DNA of 64,000 bases from an uncultured archaeon (lineage in GTDB: Archaea; Asgardarchaeota; Lokiarchaeia; Sigyniarchaeales; SOKP01): positions 1-64,000 of the forward strand of contig CAZDTP010000017.1 in assembly GCA_964508365.1 (NCBI GenBank), read 5' to 3'. The first letter of the stretch is position 1. Each line of letters opens with the position of its first letter. The position numbers were made by a program, and so were the translations under genes. Under the pieces are notes generated by a model. It searched no databases. It saw nothing but the letters and a program-made list of their open reading frames with translations, and had not been told where the DNA came from. Shown here piece by piece: positions 1,246 to 14,667 of the stretch.

Positions 1246-3918
1246 TTATTTAAATCTAATTTCCCATTTTAAGGATTTATCACCTTTATTCTCGCCAATG
1301 AAGAGCAAAAAGCCTTTATCTATAGAATAATCGCTTTTGGCACCATTAATCGAGATGGATTTTATGTTTTTAAGCTCATCCTCGCTCATTTTAAAAGATA
1401 AGTTCCATTTACCTTCTTTCTTTGGATGGTACCATCCAGAATATCCATCATGGGATTTTATTAATCCAAAGAGAGAGGTTATTAATTTGAAACTATCTTT
1501 AGGTAAGGAAGGATTTATTTCTACCCCATTGCGAGTGAAAGTTAATCCCATTAAACGAGTTATGTCATATAGTGGCCATGCATGAGGATGTAAATTAAAA
1601 ACAGGAAAATCAGTCCAAGCTAACCCCATATGGCCAAGATGTTCTTCTCCATCTGCAATTTCTTGTTCTCCACTAATTAAACCTTCGTCAAATACGGTCT
1701 GCCCTGGATATTTAGATAGATCCGAATTATACGTATCTGGACCGCTCCAAATACCGTACCAAACATCCGGAAAATTTTCAGCATGGTAAGCAAGCGAATT
1801 TTTTTTCCATTCGTCCCAACCCATTTGTCCATCAACCAGTGAAAGAGCCCATATTAAAGTACCGTTTATCGAAGGCCATATACCAGCATTTACACCCTGC
1901 CCTATATTTCTTATACTCTCAATTCCTTTGCTATGAAGCCTTGCACCGATTTTTGATGGCTTTCTTACTAATTCATTAATGGATTGCACTAAAATCTTCT
2001 TTTCCCTATCATCAAGAACACTCCCAATAATAGCCCAAGGTTGAGGTTCTAACCACATTTGGTCATCACCTACCCAGCCCAGATCTTCTGTTAACCAGGC
2101 TCTTCTAAACCACCTACCTGTCCATTGCGCTCTAACTGCTTCTCTTTGGGATTCAGAATATTTCAAAACTTCAACAGCTAATTCAGATTCGTTTAAAAAA
2201 CTTAACATTTCAGAGTAAATTTTAAGTGAGAAAATAGCCATTGCGGCGTTTAAAACGCTTTCCCCTTCTTTTTGAATTTCTTTATGTTTCTCAGGTGGAA
2301 TGTTTCCAATTACAACTCCGTCGTTCCAATCTCCATTCGATATTCGTTGAAGTCCATGGAGTCCTGTCCCAGTTTTTTTAACTAGGTGACGATAGCATCT
2401 TTTCAATATTTCTCCGACATTTACTACCTCAACTCGAGATCCATAAACAGGATATCTTGAAATATCCTCGGAAAGGAAATCTATGTCTCGTGTACCAAGA
2501 ATGTATTCACTTGTCAGCCATAACAACCACATTTCTTGATCACTCGGTTTAAAAGGAACAATTAAAATTTGTCCGCTACCGGTGATGCCGTAGGGTATTT
2601 CTCCGCTCTTACGAACCGTTTTCAGAGTATACCTAATTACATTCTTAACGATGTCAGGATCGTTGTATATAAATGGTAACGCGTGCTGTAAAGAATCTCG
2701 AGCAGCCCCTTGAAATCCCATTATATATTGATAAACATGACCCTGAGAGAGGATATGTTCTTTAAAAAAGCTATCGTAGGTCATAGCGCTTCGCAAATAG
2801 TAATAATGCCAAAACACCTCGCGATTTATCCAAGCCTCGTCAAGGATTTGTAATTGTATCCTACTAGCTCTCCATCGCTCACAAGACTCTTTAAGCTTTG
2901 TGGATGTGTTAGTCTTGTATTTATTAATCAATAATTCCAGCTCGGAATTATCGGGTAGATATCCGTATAGAAAAGAAAAAGTACAGCTTTCACCTGGGTT
3001 CAAACTTACTTTCTGTTCTAAGAACATGGAGCTTTCTACTCCTGTCGAGTTAATGATATTATTTAGATCGTTTTTCAAACCATCAGGAGATTCAACGCTA
3101 CCTATACCAAAAAAATCTCTGCTATTCGTTTGCATTCCACTGATTTCCGAGTCTAAGGAGACTAAAAATGTTTTGGGAGGAAATTTATCGTCATAACTAG
3201 GTTGAAGGTTGTTCGGATCATATACCTTTTTCAGATTTTCAAAATATCTTTTATCTACAATTCCTGTGCGATTCTCGATTGGTTTGAATTCATGTTTGAG
3301 TTTATTGCTTGATTCGTGTCGGACATCTCTCGGATGTTTATTGGATGTTTTCGAAAGGATTCCCGCAAAAGCAGCAGAAGAAAACTGATATGTGTAACAT
3401 CCCCAATATTCGATCCAACGCAAATCTATTCGTTTTTTTCTATTATTGGTAATTGTAACCTGAGAAATTACCACGGGATCATCCCCAAACGGTGCGAAAA
3501 TAATTTGATTCACTGAATATCCTTTTCCACTCACTTTTTTTTGAAGATAACCAATTCCAAAAATTCGTTCGAATAAATCTGCATTTCCTGGATAATATGT
3601 GCTCAAATAATCATCGTTATCTGTTAGATAACCAAATCCTCCAGCATACTGACCTTGTTCTGGATTAAACTCATTTAAATATTTTGGACTTCCTTCATCC
3701 TGTCTTACTTGGACATATCCATAATTCGAAGCTACAGCAACCAGCCTATCGTTCCCAACTTGATGAAGGTGTTCTGTATTTGAACGCCACTTTTTGTTCA
3801 TTGGAGTTATAGCTTTTGGATCGTTTATTTGATCGCATGTATAACGATATGCTGGCAGTCCAAAATCGTCTTCAATCCATTCACCAAAATATCCTGAACC
3901 AAATTCTTTTTTATTCAT
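1246..3918 (-). CDS. GH94-like glycoside phosphorylase/hydrolase (cellobiose phosphorylase superfamily)
   Basis: 890 aa; GFQGAARDSLQH and NGDWNDG (catalytic-Asp-type motif) in an (alpha/alpha)6 region; WTGRWFRRAW. Confidence 0.7.
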   Translation of the reverse strand: MNKKEFGSGYFGEWIEDDFGLPAYRYTCDQINDPKAITPMNKKWRSNTEHLHQVGNDRLVAVASNYGYVQVRQDEGSPKYLNEFNPEQGQYAGGFGYLTDNDDYLSTYYPGNADLFERIFGIGYLQKKVSGKGYSVNQIIFAPFGDDPVVISQVTITNNRKKRIDLRWIEYWGCYTYQFSSAAFAGILSKTSNKHPRDVRHESSNKLKHEFKPIENRTGIVDKRYFENLKKVYDPNNLQPSYDDKFPPKTFLVSLDSEISGMQTNSRDFFGIGSVESPDGLKNDLNNIINSTGVESSMFLEQKVSLNPGESCTFSFLYGYLPDNSELELLINKYKTNTSTKLKESCERWRASRIQLQILDEAWINREVFWHYYYLRSAMTYDSFFKEHILSQGHVYQYIMGFQGAARDSLQHALPFIYNDPDIVKNVIRYTLKTVRKSGEIPYGITGSGQILIVPFKPSDQEMWLLWLTSEYILGTRDIDFLSEDISRYPVYGSRVEVVNVGEILKRCYRHLVKKTGTGLHGLQRISNGDWNDGVVIGNIPPEKHKEIQKEGESVLNAAMAIFSLKIYSEMLSFLNESELAVEVLKYSESQREAVRAQWTGRWFRRAWLTEDLGWVGDDQMWLEPQPWAIIGSVLDDREKKILVQSINELVRKPSKIGARLHSKGIESIRNIGQGVNAGIWPSINGTLIWALSLVDGQMGWDEWKKNSLAYHAENFPDVWYGIWSGPDTYNSDLSKYPGQTVFDEGLISGEQEIADGEEHLGHMGLAWTDFPVFNLHPHAWPLYDITRLMGLTFTRNGVEINPSLPKDSFKLITSLFGLIKSHDGYSGWYHPKKEGKWNLSFKMSEDELKNIKSISINGAKSDYSIDKGFLLFIGENKGDKSLKWEIRFK

Positions 3919-9423: not shown

Positions 9424-10131
9424 TTATAGAAGTCCTATTATATCTATCAAATTTCCCTTATAAGTTGGTTCGGGAGTTTCAGCACTCAAATTTGTGTTTG
9501 AATTATTTACTAAGAATGTTTGCGAGCCTAATTTAGAACACACCATATCCTTATCTTCGTCCCCTACCATCATGCATTCTTTAGCAGAGAGATTAAGATA
9601 TTTAAATATCAATTGATAATAAAGGAGATTCGGCTTCGTGGCATATGAATTTTCAATACTGGTTATGAGATCGTACGGAAAATCGCCAATTCCTGCCCAA
9701 TCAAGACGCTGCTCTATAGCTGTTAACGGAAAAACGGGCGTTGTTGCAATTACAACTTTGTAACCTTTGTTAAATGCGGTTTGAATAACTTTTCGTGCTT
9801 CTGGTTTCTTTTTTGTAAATTTTTGTAGTTTCTTAAATTCTTCCTCGTAAAATTTATCAAAAAGTGGCTGAATCTCGTCCTTTTTATAGCCTTCAACAGG
9901 AAAAAAAGCATTTGAAAATGCTTCCTCGTTTGGAATTTTACCATCGTTACGATTTACGAATTCAGAGGCTTTCAATATGGCTGGAACCATCTTTTTAGGA
10001 GGGATTAAATGAGCTACACTATTCGCCAATAGTTTTAAATATCCTGGAATAAACTGGCGTAAATCGAAATGTATTAAAGTTCCATCTAAGTCGAATAAGA
10101 TTGCTTTAAGTTGTCCCATAATTTTCCGCAA
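9424..10131 (-). CDS. HAD-superfamily hydrolase
   Basis: FDLDGT motif I, ATT motif II, KP motif III, GDEDKD motif IV. Confidence 0.85.
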   Translation of the reverse strand: MRKIMGQLKAILFDLDGTLIHFDLRQFIPGYLKLLANSVAHLIPPKKMVPAILKASEFVNRNDGKIPNEEAFSNAFFPVEGYKKDEIQPLFDKFYEEEFKKLQKFTKKKPEARKVIQTAFNKGYKVVIATTPVFPLTAIEQRLDWAGIGDFPYDLITSIENSYATKPNLLYYQLIFKYLNLSAKECMMVGDEDKDMVCSKLGSQTFLVNNSNTNLSAETPEPTYKGNLIDIIGLL

Positions 10132-10288: not shown

Positions 10289-11497
10289 ATGAAGCTCGAG
10301 CTTAACGATCTAAATAATGGACATGTTTACTTAGGAGATAAGCTAAATGTTAGAACAAGATTTATTTTCGACGAAGATTCGTCAATCTTATGGTCGGGAA
10401 TTCGCCTATTAACCCATCCTCCATGCTTAAAAGAGCTTCAGATAACTAAAGAAGACATTTTTTCAAAAGGAATTTTTGAAAAAGGCGAATACATTCGGGA
10501 AAGAGCATTACTTATAAAGAATAATGTAATCCCTACAATTAAAAATAGAAATTTAGAGTATGAAATTAAACTAATTTTAAGACAGCCTCATCCAAACAAT
10601 CCAGACGACGATTTAGTGATTAATAAAACACATAAGATTGAAGTTAGAGTTAAGGATACTAGCGATCAGATTATAAAAACGAATCCTCTTTCACTTTCAA
10701 TTTCAGGTTTGAATGTTAATATATCAAAAGATGTATTCAAACCGGGAGAAACAATTAAAATCAACTTCTCTTCAAACGAACTAAAACAAGTAGAAATAAG
10801 ATTATTACAAAAAGCGAATCTCGTATGTTATTGCAATGCTTATGGGCAAACCTGTAGTAAAGTAGAAGAGCTACCGCCTTCAATCGCGGGAGATTCTAAG
10901 ACTTCTGATATGAATAAGGCATTTATTTTGCTAAAAATTCCTGAGATCGCTCAACCTAGTCATAACTATCTCTGGGAGCCTCATGAAAAAGAATTTTGGG
11001 GTATGAAATATGGATCTTACGTGAAGTGGTCTTTACATTTTATTGGAAAACCCAAGTCAGAATACGGAAAAGAGATTATTAGGTTTAAGGTTCCAATTAC
11101 GATTGTTGCAAAATCTGTGGGTGGAAATAAGGTTGGTGTCGATCTATTCTCTAAGGGGGTAACTGCTGCACCTTCGATTTTCGATGGGATTTCGTCTAAA
11201 TTCCAGAAAGTATTCAAAATTACATCCATTGACTCTGATATGGAAAAATATAGTATTTTGATTAAAAATATATCAAAAGATAGCTTAAAAGGCGTATCAG
11301 TAAAAACTTCTGGACTTCAGGAGGGACTATTTGAAACCGAACCAACTCTAACAGGCTTTAGTAGTTGGGAATCTAACGAGGAAAAGGAAATTATCTATAA
11401 TAGCAAGCAGAATATCTCTGCTTTAATCTTTGTTTTGGAGGATAATAATCAAAGAGTTATAAGAATACAAACTCCACTAGCCTCTAACTTTTTTTAA
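10289..11497 (+). CDS. Putative arrestin/Vps26/SpoOM-fold protein with an extra C-terminal beta domain
   Basis: Two beta-sandwich-like halves with arrestin-type patterns: VYLGDKLNV..IPTIKNRNLEYEIKLIL (N domain) and ISKDVFKPGETIKINF..VEIRLLQ..LKIPEIAQPS..VKWSL..FKVPITIV (C domain). Confidence 0.55.
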   Translation: MKLELNDLNNGHVYLGDKLNVRTRFIFDEDSSILWSGIRLLTHPPCLKELQITKEDIFSKGIFEKGEYIRERALLIKNNVIPTIKNRNLEYEIKLILRQPHPNNPDDDLVINKTHKIEVRVKDTSDQIIKTNPLSLSISGLNVNISKDVFKPGETIKINFSSNELKQVEIRLLQKANLVCYCNAYGQTCSKVEELPPSIAGDSKTSDMNKAFILLKIPEIAQPSHNYLWEPHEKEFWGMKYGSYVKWSLHFIGKPKSEYGKEIIRFKVPITIVAKSVGGNKVGVDLFSKGVTAAPSIFDGISSKFQKVFKITSIDSDMEKYSILIKNISKDSLKGVSVKTSGLQEGLFETEPTLTGFSSWESNEEKEIIYNSKQNISALIFVLEDNNQRVIRIQTPLASNFF

Positions 11498-11514
11498 GTT
11501 AAATTAGGTTTTGG

Positions 11515-12108
11515 TCACTGAAGCGCAGATAGTATCTGCCCCTTATATAGATTTTTAAATACTAAGCTCAAAATTTCCTCAAAGCTGTCTAAGATTCCTT
11601 CTCCGTTAAGCGCAATCGTCTTTCTAAAATCAATATTTTTAAATTTAAAGTAATTAATGTTTTCCAAAAAGACCGCTGGACTAAATTTATCAGGCAGATC
11701 TTGCTTGTTAAATGCTATAACCTTAGGTAGAGTAATAATTACATCTTCAAAATAATTGCATAATTCATTCCAAGAAGTTAAATTTCGGTAATACACTTCT
11801 TGTTGTGAATCCGCTACGAATATAATCCCATCGATGGCTTGCAAAGTTACTGGTCTTGTTATTATATAGAAATCTTGTCCAGTCGTGGAATAAATGTGAA
11901 TTTTCAAATTCCACTGTTGATTTTGAAAACTAATCGTTCCATAATCGAAGAATAGTGTCCTCCGTATGCTACTGTCTATGCTCAAAACTCGATCTTTCTT
12001 CCCAAAATGATTAAATAATGCTTTAATTGATGAAGTTTTTCCCGAAAGTGCTGGCCCGAAATAGCATACTTTTAACTGAATACTTTGCGTGAGCTGATCT
12101 ATTATCAT
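11515..12108 (-). CDS. Small Ras-superfamily GTPase, MglA-like
   Basis: G1 YFGPALSGKT, G2 RTLFFD, G3 STTGQ (MglA-type TxxGQ), IDGIIFVADS, G4 NKQD, G5 IALNGEG. Confidence 0.85.
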   Translation of the reverse strand: MIIDQLTQSIQLKVCYFGPALSGKTSSIKALFNHFGKKDRVLSIDSSIRRTLFFDYGTISFQNQQWNLKIHIYSTTGQDFYIITRPVTLQAIDGIIFVADSQQEVYYRNLTSWNELCNYFEDVIITLPKVIAFNKQDLPDKFSPAVFLENINYFKFKNIDFRKTIALNGEGILDSFEEILSLVFKNLYKGQILSALQ

Positions 12109-12487: not shown

Positions 12488-14050
12488 TTAATCTACAATA
12501 TCCTTATAACAATCTTCTGGATAGAAATTGTTTTCATCTTTATCATGATTTGGGTACCAAACCTGTGCAAAGAAAGAATTTTTCTCGGCCTGTTCATCAT
12601 AAGTCCATGGTGGGGGCAAACAATCAGCACACCAATGTCCCGCTTTCAGAACAGTATAAGGTTTTAATTCAAACTCATGGCCATCCGCACATTTCCATTT
12701 AATTTTCTTATACATATCCCCATCCCATTCTGTTGAGAGACAATGACCTCCCCTGAATTTTGCTGCTCCTTTAAGATCTTCTAAATCAAGCCGTTGCTTT
12801 GACTCATCATATCCATGATTTAATGGGTGCCATTCAGGCTCAGGATCACTAAACAGTGGCATTTCTACACCCCAATCGGGAATAGAATCGAAAGTCTCAT
12901 AATCTTTATAAAACGCAGAGATGCGCATATCCATTTTATTCTTATACCAATATAGCGTTCCTGTTTTATCCATCGCTTCTGCCTCTAATCTCTTGCGTGT
13001 CTCTTTTTGAATAAATCTCTGAAATCGCTTAGACCATTGGCATAACTTTGCTACGATTTTTAAGAAAAAAGGTCGACTTTTCCTCATGATTTCAAAGTAA
13101 TCTTCCATTGTATCTCTCCAGTTATGGATATACTCATTAAGTTCATGACTATCATCAAAATATTGCATATGGAAATTCCTAAGAGCAAACCATTTACGTT
13201 CAGTAACATCATCAATCTTTCCAACGCCATTCATTTTCATAGCCTCATTCACGAATTCATAGAACGTAACTCTGCAAGAGGGCCCTCCACCCATATTATA
13301 GCATCTACGCCAGAAAGTGGAGTCCTCTGCAACCTCTAAACAATTTATTAGTCCCCTACCAGCATCTCTTGAAGTATTATTTTCCATAAAAGAATTAATA
13401 GGTTGATGGAACATAATAGGATCCATAAGAGTCATCACATCTGGAATCATGATAAAGGTTTGCCGTAAGGATGCCCAATATTTTAAGTTTGACTCACAGA
13501 GAGCCATTTCCCCTCGAATCTTAGTTGTTGCATAGAAGTCGAACACACTGGGCTTCATAGGATCACCTATTCTACCATGGTGAATTGGGGGCAAACGATC
13601 ACCTGTAGCAGCTACAGTTCCCGTATACACAAATTTTATATGGTCCGCTCCACCTGGCTGTGATTCAATGGCTTTAATGATATATTCAATAGCAGTTGTA
13701 TTTACTGACTTGGCCATTTCAGGATTGCGGTCTGCTGCTGGAGAAATAAATGCCATAGGACATAGAACCCAGTCAACTCCTTTACATGCCTCAGCAATAT
13801 CATCATAATTAGTAGCATCACCCCATATTATTTTCAATCCTTTACCCTCAACAATACCTCTACCAGGTATGGACTTGATACCGCATTTATTTTCATAAGG
13901 CTTAAATAATTTTTTATTCTTTTTGGAAGGTCTCTGTAAGAGAATGATATCATACTTATCTCTTCTTTTCCATAATTCCTTAAAAGACTCATGTCCCATT
14001 GATCCACTCGCGCCTGGTAAAAATATTATTTCCTTCTCCATATTTAACAA
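12488..14050 (-). CDS. Extended SDR / NAD-dependent epimerase-dehydratase with a C-terminal Cys-rich (zinc-ribbon-like) domain
   Basis: PGASGSMG, YATTK (YxxxK); C-terminal CLS..WKCADGHEF..HWCADC; likely ATG at 14041. Confidence 0.75.
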   Translation of the reverse strand: MLNMEKEIIFLPGASGSMGHESFKELWKRRDKYDIILLQRPSKKNKKLFKPYENKCGIKSIPGRGIVEGKGLKIIWGDATNYDDIAEACKGVDWVLCPMAFISPAADRNPEMAKSVNTTAIEYIIKAIESQPGGADHIKFVYTGTVAATGDRLPPIHHGRIGDPMKPSVFDFYATTKIRGEMALCESNLKYWASLRQTFIMIPDVMTLMDPIMFHQPINSFMENNTSRDAGRGLINCLEVAEDSTFWRRCYNMGGGPSCRVTFYEFVNEAMKMNGVGKIDDVTERKWFALRNFHMQYFDDSHELNEYIHNWRDTMEDYFEIMRKSRPFFLKIVAKLCQWSKRFQRFIQKETRKRLEAEAMDKTGTLYWYKNKMDMRISAFYKDYETFDSIPDWGVEMPLFSDPEPEWHPLNHGYDESKQRLDLEDLKGAAKFRGGHCLSTEWDGDMYKKIKWKCADGHEFELKPYTVLKAGHWCADCLPPPWTYDEQAEKNSFFAQVWYPNHDKDENNFYPEDCYKDIVD

Positions 14051-14289: not shown

Positions 14290-14667
14290 TTAAAAAACTA
14301 AGTTGTTACCTTCTATCTTACACTCTAACAGAGACCTGAGAATAAGGATTTCAACTTCTCTTTTTAAAATTAGCTCATCTAACTCAACATTTTCTTGCTT
14401 ATTTAATATTTCTTTTAAATCAATAAAGGATATCGACTTTTGTTTTCGAGAAATTTTCTTAATAACGCTCAAAACTCTTTGTTGATTGTAAAGCGACTGT
14501 GAATTTGAAATTAATTGATATAATTTATGAGTAAGATTATAATCAAAATTTCCCACTTTTTCAGCTTCTCTCAATTTATCTAATATAATAAGAGCCTCTA
14601 GATACCTTTCATTTCTCATTAATTCTTGAACTTCGTTTAAATCTCTTACAAAATCATTAACTTCCAT
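14290..14667 (-). CDS. Small helical protein with a C-terminal PCI/winged-helix-like domain
   Basis: SISFIDLKEIL...EVEILILRSLLECKIEGNNLVF resembles the PCI pattern I-x-h-x-x-L-x-x-x-L...V-x-x-LI-x-x-G-x-I-x-x-KID; helical hairpin at the N-terminus. Confidence 0.5.
   Translation of the reverse strand: MEVNDFVRDLNEVQELMRNERYLEALIILDKLREAEKVGNFDYNLTHKLYQLISNSQSLYNQQRVLSVIKKISRKQKSISFIDLKEILNKQENVELDELILKREVEILILRSLLECKIEGNNLVF

Follow-up and report, generated by a model that had tools for sequence, protein, structure and literature searches.

Arrestin-domain proteins and homologues of Vps26 and other retromer subunits have already been reported from Asgard archaea (PMC10307638; 10.1101/2021.04.02.438162), and the Rag-like, MglA-like and roadblock proteins of these organisms are also known from the literature. 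According to one structural study, the GTPases of the cultivated strain MK-D1 are generally not located in operons with regulators, so that their partners are hard to predict (PMC10933270). In the literature that was searched, no paper links archaeal arrestin-fold proteins to Rag-type or MglA-type GTPases, to F420 or to FrhB. Here we describe the gene for an arrestin-clan protein of 402 aa and three domains, P0001 (positions 10289-11497, + strand; open reading frame, translation, AlphaFold2 model and structural matches), found in a window of 64,000 nucleotides, the whole stretch of DNA analysed. The window lies on contig C17 of a 4.07 Mb Asgard archaeal genome (completeness 100%, contamination 3.65%). 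The gene is placed tail-to-tail with that of a 197-aa MglA-family small GTPase, P0002 (11515-12108, - strand), and a first-pass annotation had proposed the two as an adaptor-GTPase pair. Co-inheritance with a GTPase was indeed found, but with one of the Rag/Gtr1 type and not with the adjoining MglA-like protein. With a probability of roughly 0.55, we regard P0001 as belonging, as its arrestin-fold subunit, to a Rag-type GTPase module specific to Asgard archaea, in which the tail of P0001 would be a docking domain, its body an adaptor with a Cys4 metal site, and the MglA-like gene a bystander.

The gene neighbourhoods were compared in 300 evenly sampled genomes of the Asgard phylum. The queries were P0002 and two profiles, one for the arrestin-like and one for the Rag-type family, and the coordinates of the matches were tabulated (MglA matches at E <= 1e-30, Rag-type matches at E <= 1e-70). 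The counts are descriptive, as the sampled genomes are related and hence not independent. In the complete genome G038 (locus L033) a 514-aa FrhB-like protein carrying the tail, a 317-aa Gtr1_RagA GTPase (E 4.8e-18) and the arrestin-like protein are encoded in this order on one strand, the last two genes being 36 bp apart. The same order is present in most loci of the families f4, f10, f20 and f21 and of the genera g4 and g8 of f1, the window's own family, and a short locus of f3 holds the Rag-type and arrestin-like genes only. Outside f1 all 14 arrestin-like genes are preceded by the Rag-type gene, which shares their orientation and lies at a distance of 33-47 bp. Within f1, where 56 genomes have the arrestin-like gene and 11 do not, it was found on the same contig in 36 of the 56, without exception in the same orientation and upstream, at a distance of 30 bp to 24 kb, and directly upstream at less than 200 bp in five. 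Such spacing is what would be expected if the operon had been split by insertions (HAD hydrolase, GNAT and others).

The distribution of the two genes follows the same line. Full-length arrestin-like genes occur in families f1, f3, f4, f10, f20 and f21, and Rag-type genes in the same six and in f24, which has tail-bearing proteins and no arrestin-like gene. Neither gene was found in f7, f9 and f14, which total 123 genomes. Moreover, an intact and uninterrupted Rag-type gene is present in none of the 11 f1 genomes that are devoid of the arrestin-like gene: the copy is interrupted by 31 nt in two, reduced to a C-terminal fragment in two and without a match in the remaining seven. Gene order, co-occurrence and co-loss are all directly observed. 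The Rag-type protein itself has the motifs GxxGCGKTS, DFGGQ and HKYD, with a mean column identity of 71%.

Some further features of these loci were recorded. The 31 extra nucleotides split the Rag-type gene at the same spot, just before DFGGQ, in genomes G019 (L059:6393-6434) and G030 (L060:3360-3401), where they bring in a stop codon and shift the frame. The two genomes represent two species of the sister genus g3, which lacks the arrestin-like gene; their inserts have diverged, yet the flanking parts are both still open, and the exon-like flanks can pair (CUCCAAA with UUUGGAG), a C-to-U change retaining a G-U pair. The candidate explanations are a mini-intron or a programmed frameshift, in preference to a dead gene. 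The single f20 genome (G025, L035:7631-8542) has an in-frame TAA within the P-loop region of its Rag-type orthologue (KIAL*GLSGS). On contig C61 of the genome under study (1755-3568, L048), the Rag-type gene, at 2663-3568, is preceded by a gene for a leucine-rich-repeat protein, at the place where close relatives have the FrhB-like gene. In family f21 (L033:1569-6864 and L045:904-6181) four tandem paralogous proteins of about 425 aa, each ending in a V4R domain, are encoded in the same orientation as the arrestin-like gene and directly 3' of it, and a C25 peptidase, a tail-bearing protein of about 350 aa and a CBS protein are encoded upstream of the FrhB-like gene. V4R reportedly shares ancestry with TRAPPC3/Bet3 (PMC10933270).

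The fold of P0001 was modelled with AlphaFold2 from an alignment (A1) of 27 family sequences, which includes homologues down to 19% identity. The model (mean pLDDT 84, pTM 0.74) consists of three all-beta domains, at about residues 1-125, 131-275 and 307-397. The first is an arrestin-N-like beta sandwich (10289-10663, + strand), assigned by matches to Spo0M, ARRDC3 and TXNIP, and the second an arrestin-C-like lobe (10679-11113, + strand), assigned by a sub-threshold Pfam Arrestin_C match and by alignments over both lobes. A disordered linker with pLDDT <50 follows (residues 277-305; 11117-11203, + strand) and leads to an Ig-like tail of seven strands (residues 307-397; 11207-11479, + strand), which is defined by the family profile, by an alignment and by a stand-alone model.

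Arrestin-clan structures match residues 1-277 in both Foldseek and VIA-align. The best Foldseek matches in the PDB are VPS26C and VPS26A (E 2e-10 to 7e-10, probability 1.00), followed by VPS26B, beta-arrestin, ARRD-6, TXNIP and Rgp1, the whole list running from E 2e-10 to 1e-7. VIA-align, which searched 48,161 chain representatives, matched the N lobe to Spo0M (Z 14.4, 118 residues aligned), to the N lobe of ARRDC3 (Z 13.2) and to the N domain of TXNIP (Z 11.3). Alignments over both lobes, spanning 240-257 residues at Z 12.5-13.9, were obtained with Vps26 (Z 13.9, 242 aligned), arrestin (Z 12.5, 240 aligned) and ARRD-6 (Z 12.5), and Rgp1 reached Z 13.0. The nearest named clusters in the ESM Atlas include bacterial Arrestin_N/Arrestin_C/Spo0M proteins from Chloroflexota and Armatimonadota, and also eukaryotic ARRDC and Vps26 proteins; the TM values, normalised by the target row, are 0.68 and 0.56 for the bacterial clusters against 0.35-0.57 for the eukaryotic ones.

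Sequence profiles give fainter signals. Pfam Arrestin_C covers residues 141-273 of P0001 with 21.4 bits (E 3.4e-4), where the curated threshold is 27.7, and is found at E <= 0.01 in 10 of the 27 family members, the best at 3.4e-5; a precomputed PF02752 match exists on three homologues. Arrestin_N, Vps26 (PF03643) and Spo0M (PF07070) have no match at E <= 0.01 in any of the 27. The family profile run against PDB sequences matched only ARRD-6 (E 0.02), and NCBIfam returned nothing meaningful for P0001 or P0002. No member of the family was seen outside Asgard lineages (41 representatives at 50% identity), its close matches are all archaeal, and public records label the close homologues of P0001 as Lokiarchaeota or Promethearchaeota. 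Taken together, P0001 is predicted from its model, with good confidence, to be a member of the arrestin clan, and the two-lobed arrestin/Vps26-type fold followed by a third beta domain, which the first-pass annotation had proposed, is borne out by the model and by the structural matches. Since the Z scores of Vps26, Spo0M, ARRDC3, arrestin and Rgp1 fall within about 2 units of each other, structure does not permit the choice of a subfamily, and P0001 cannot be assigned to Vps26, to the alpha-arrestins or to Spo0M.

P0001 has its tail in common with other proteins of the module. When modelled alone it reaches pLDDT 89.6, and it matches only generic Ig-like sandwiches in a flat list with Z <= 9.6. 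The family profile, in turn, matches the C-terminus of a 499-aa iron-sulfur flavoprotein of the FrhB/FdhB type encoded on contig C46 of the same genome (E 7.6e-7), and it detects the same tail in many proteins of about 500 aa and about 350 aa in other Asgard genomes. Two of the relatives of about 350 aa are encoded in this genome, on contigs C68 and C2. Although the family profile detects the similarity between the tail and the FrhB-like protein, a pairwise BLASTP comparison of the two was not significant; the motifs common to both are displayed in alignment A3. P0001 itself is present in a single copy, the only full-length one found when this genome was searched with the family profile.

P0001 contains exactly four cysteines. 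Cys46 (10424-10426) belongs to the N lobe, and the other three, Cys180, Cys182 and Cys189, are arranged as C-x-C-x6-C within a loop (10826-10855) of the C lobe. None of the four varies among the 27 members of A1 or among 14 orthologues taken from genomes of seven families. Such a pattern suggests that the four-cysteine set is probably a metal site. The common tail and the invariant cysteines, like the fold, are results of the present analysis.

The module may be pictured as follows. The ancestral order would have been FrhB-like iron-sulfur flavoprotein, Rag/Gtr1-like GTPase and arrestin-like gene. The Ig-like tail present on P0001, on the FrhB-like protein and on the protein of about 350 aa would be a common docking domain, recruiting each of its carriers to one partner. 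The simplest candidate for this partner is the Rag-like GTPase or its roadblock-domain dimer. An adaptor or effector surface would be provided by the two-lobed arrestin body, whose four-cysteine site is probably metal-binding and possibly redox-sensitive. The MglA-like gene would have stayed at the 3' end of the module through inherited gene order and would be no obligate partner. We infer the physical contacts, the metal and any signalling role. A multimer prediction of the arrestin-like protein (A1) with the Rag-type GTPase of this genome (A2), run without controls, gave ipSAE values of 0.02 and 0.01 against a mark of 0.32 and counts neither for nor against binding.

Several points weigh against the module as described. 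All its parts are present in this genome, but they are unlinked, the Rag-type gene being on contig C61, the FrhB-like gene on C46 and that of P0001 on C17, and because these are different contigs co-transcription of the module cannot apply here. In f1 the arrestin/MglA junction is tighter (46 of 56 at <=4 kb) than that between the Rag-type and arrestin-like genes (22 of 56 at <=5 kb), so that a functional link of local scope is conceivable. Four genomes bearing the arrestin-like gene have no Rag-type match at E <= 1e-70, and two of these are 99-100% complete. In addition, the related genomes are not independent, so that the counts overstate the number of events, and the contacts within the module are predictions.

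A more specific version of the same scheme would make P0001 a metal- or redox-sensing effector of the archaeal Rag-type switch. The Cys4 site would read the redox state from the FrhB-like flavoprotein, the tail would dock both proteins on the Rag-like GTPase, and in f1 the MglA paralogue would possibly have been recruited as a second GTPase input. We consider this version unlikely as it stands. If true, it would offer a prokaryotic precedent for the link of the arrestin family (TXNIP, yeast ARTs) to nutrient and energy signalling through Rag/TORC1.

P0001 could also be a stand-alone stress or regulatory protein of the Spo0M/arrestin type, tied to the Rag operon by co-regulation alone and forming no complex. 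The Spo0M of B. subtilis is the best single structural match (the Z of 14.4 given above), and the gene is its own transcription unit in this genome and in most of f1, both of which agree with this explanation. It is nevertheless improbable, because the tail is common to two other proteins of the module and the arrestin-like gene is lost together with the Rag-type gene, which indicates more than co-regulation.

The neighbouring GTPase requires closer consideration. P0002 matches the MglA of M. xanthus (6h17_A) over its full length, residues 4-190, with a phmmer E of 1.3e-26, and it also has Pfam Ras/Roc/Arf matches. Its switch-I arginine motif, R50-TLFFD, aligns with the RTLFFD of MglA, and its TTGQ with the VPGQ. 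By these sequence criteria P0002 is a true member of the MglA family, so the earlier naming of this gene as MglA-like holds. The 402-aa frame ends 17 bp (11498-11514, no strand) from the convergent GTPase gene, as coordinates and spacer read directly from the sequence confirm, the two stop codons facing each other; a run of seven T ends at the stop codon of P0001. The HAD-family hydrolase gene upstream (9424-10131, - strand; Pfam Hydrolase E 3.9e-15) is divergent from that of P0001 and separated from it by an AT-rich spacer of 157 bp. Since the pair is convergent, with the HAD gene divergent upstream and a 520-aa gene beyond, P0001 and P0002 are separate transcription units, and the earlier caution that their orientation speaks against co-transcription was well placed, as no transcript can be common to convergent genes. 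This genome has at least 66 Ras-superfamily matches in its 4.07 Mb, so that a single GTPase adjacency is weak evidence here; assuming about one gene per kb, some 3% of the genes are estimated to be flanked by a GTPase by chance.

Two further MglA paralogues are encoded in this genome, on contigs C49 and C24. No Robl_LC7 protein is encoded among the genes flanking P0002, and the C24 paralogue likewise has no roadblock neighbour. The canonical-looking MglA row on contig C49 (614-3127, L062) encodes on one strand a Roadblock/LC7 protein (334 aa), an unknown protein of 298 aa and the MglA paralogue (197 aa), with gaps of 13 and 7 bp, and an Arf-like GTPase gene is convergent to it. The Roadblock/LC7 protein corresponds to the classical partner of the MglB type. 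P0002, a lineage-specific duplicate, is a paralogue peculiar to f1. In a genome of the same genus the MglA-like paralogue beside the arrestin-like gene contains an in-frame TAG (G249:C15:5543-6124).

The adjacency itself is conserved within f1 and not beyond it, and a lack of conservation was what the first-pass annotation had named as refuting its proposal. An MglA-like paralogue lies downstream, convergent and at <=4 kb from the arrestin-like gene in 46 of the 56 f1 genomes, in at least six genera and with constant orientation: 23 pairs are directly adjacent, 18 have a gap of about 0.7-1.8 kb and five one of 2.4-4 kb. Outside f1 such a gene is nearby in none of the 14 genomes of the five families that carry the arrestin-like gene. 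In each of the three loci of this kind that were examined, an unrelated gene of about 270 aa (L006:2737-3543, L042:6943-7761 and L047:6425-7231) follows the arrestin-like gene at 27-181 bp in the same orientation, and it is likely to account for the gap of about 0.7-1.8 kb in the 18 related genomes. It belongs to no Pfam family, the atlas gives only a cupin-like lead, and it was not found in the genome under study.

These data allow P0001 to be weighed as a partner of P0002 within f1, either as an effector or as a platform substituting for MglB, in a pair of the polarity or trafficking type. The conserved convergence and its 23 adjacent cases are in favour, as are the fact that the P0002 paralogue has no roadblock neighbour while the C49 paralogue has one, and the confinement of the P0002-type paralogue to the family whose Rag/arrestin operon broke up. 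Against these stand the impossibility of a shared transcript, the gene that probably intervenes in 18 genomes and the wider gap in five more, and the HAD hydrolase on the opposite side, which is beside the arrestin-like gene in most f1 loci and as conserved as the MglA-like gene. The two genes also occur apart. MglA-family genes are present in 73 of 76 f9 genomes and in 19 of 19 f14 genomes, both families being without the arrestin-like gene, whereas f4, f10, f20 and f21, which have it, gave no MglA match at E <= 1e-30. Among the f1 genomes without the arrestin-like gene about seven of 11 retain the MglA paralogue; in G019 and G030 of genus g3 it lies tail-to-tail with the Rag-type gene, and a third g3 genome keeps it with no Rag-type gene nearby. 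In genera g4 and g8, conversely, the arrestin-like gene sits beside the Rag-type gene with no MglA near. A working partnership of P0001 and P0002 is therefore distinctly unlikely. The adjacency is a real inherited gene order within one family, and the genes are not mutually dependent. What catches the eye as an arrestin/MglA pair is a gene-order remnant at the level of the family and no evidence of a trafficking pair.

Least probable, and in our opinion very doubtful, is a cargo adaptor of the Vps26/retromer or alpha-arrestin type that would act on membrane proteins without the Rag module, as a direct forerunner of the eukaryotic trafficking adaptors: VPS26C and VPS26A head the Foldseek list, Vps26 aligns over 242 residues and retromer-subunit and arrestin-domain homologues are on record for Asgard archaea (PMC10307638; 10.1101/2021.04.02.438162), but Pfam Vps26 and Arrestin_N match 0 of 27 members at E <= 0.01, the rival clan members score within about 2 Z units, the Chloroflexota and Armatimonadota clusters are as close as the eukaryotic proteins, direct reading of the 402-aa sequence of P0001 reveals no PPxY motif, and conservation of the neighbourhood extends to a GTPase and a redox enzyme, not to membrane or coat proteins. 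The trafficking role put forward in the first-pass annotation found no support in anything that was tested. In the window and 45 related loci the neighbours comprise HAD hydrolase, MglA-like, Rag-type, FrhB-like, V4R, C25 peptidase and CBS proteins.

Beyond P0002 the window encodes the 520-aa protein mentioned above (12488-14050, - strand), which begins with an NAD(P)-binding/3-beta-HSD-like domain and gives, towards its C-terminus, a weak match resembling a treble-clef zinc finger (DUF4379, E 0.12). For a 125-aa open reading frame (14290-14667, - strand) the sole Pfam signal is a weak one to EXOC6/Sec15_N, under the cut-off (E 0.0044).

Asgard archaea possess eukaryote-like arrestin-domain and Rag-like proteins, and the P0001 family supplies a concrete and testable set of partners for one Rag-type GTPase. 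How this set compares with the known systems can be considered for each of its components. P0002 resembles the MglA-MglB switch of Myxococcus and Thermus in its RTLFFD arginine motif, its TxxGQ-type G3 and its length of 197 aa, and differs from it in having no adjoining roadblock/MglB gene, which the C49 paralogue has. With Vps26 and VPS26C of retromer and retriever P0001 shares two consecutive beta-sandwich lobes, whereas the identity is about 10% and a Pfam Vps26 match is missing; P0001 adds the Ig-like tail and the four-cysteine motif, and in its family the neighbouring genes encode a Rag-type GTPase and a flavoprotein of the FrhB-like kind. Spo0M and the bacterial two-lobed Arrestin_N/Arrestin_C proteins are prokaryotic members of the clan as P0001 is, but the Spo0M match covers the N lobe only, and P0001, whose family was seen only in Asgard archaea, has no Pfam Spo0M match and carries an extra tail domain.

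The alpha-arrestins (ARRDC3, TXNIP, ARRD-6) and the visual and beta-arrestins are similar to P0001 in fold (Z 11-13), and Arrestin_C is its only Pfam signal; unlike them, P0001 has no PPxY, and its Arrestin_C score is under the curated threshold. To our knowledge the C-x-C-x6-C loop combined with an N-lobe cysteine is no trait of eukaryotic arrestins. TXNIP is a cysteine-dependent, redox-linked arrestin, and by analogy it may offer a functional parallel to the cysteine-bearing P0001. Regarding the eukaryotic Rag/Gtr hub (RagA/C or Gtr1/2 with Ragulator/EGO, GATOR1 and FLCN-FNIP), we know of no arrestin-fold or FrhB-type subunit in it, and the Asgard module differs from it in having no TOR kinase context. 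The two are nevertheless alike in that the Asgard GTPase is of the Gtr1_RagA type, with about 300 aa and a G4 of the HKxD type (HKYD), and in that accessory proteins accompany the GTPase in both.

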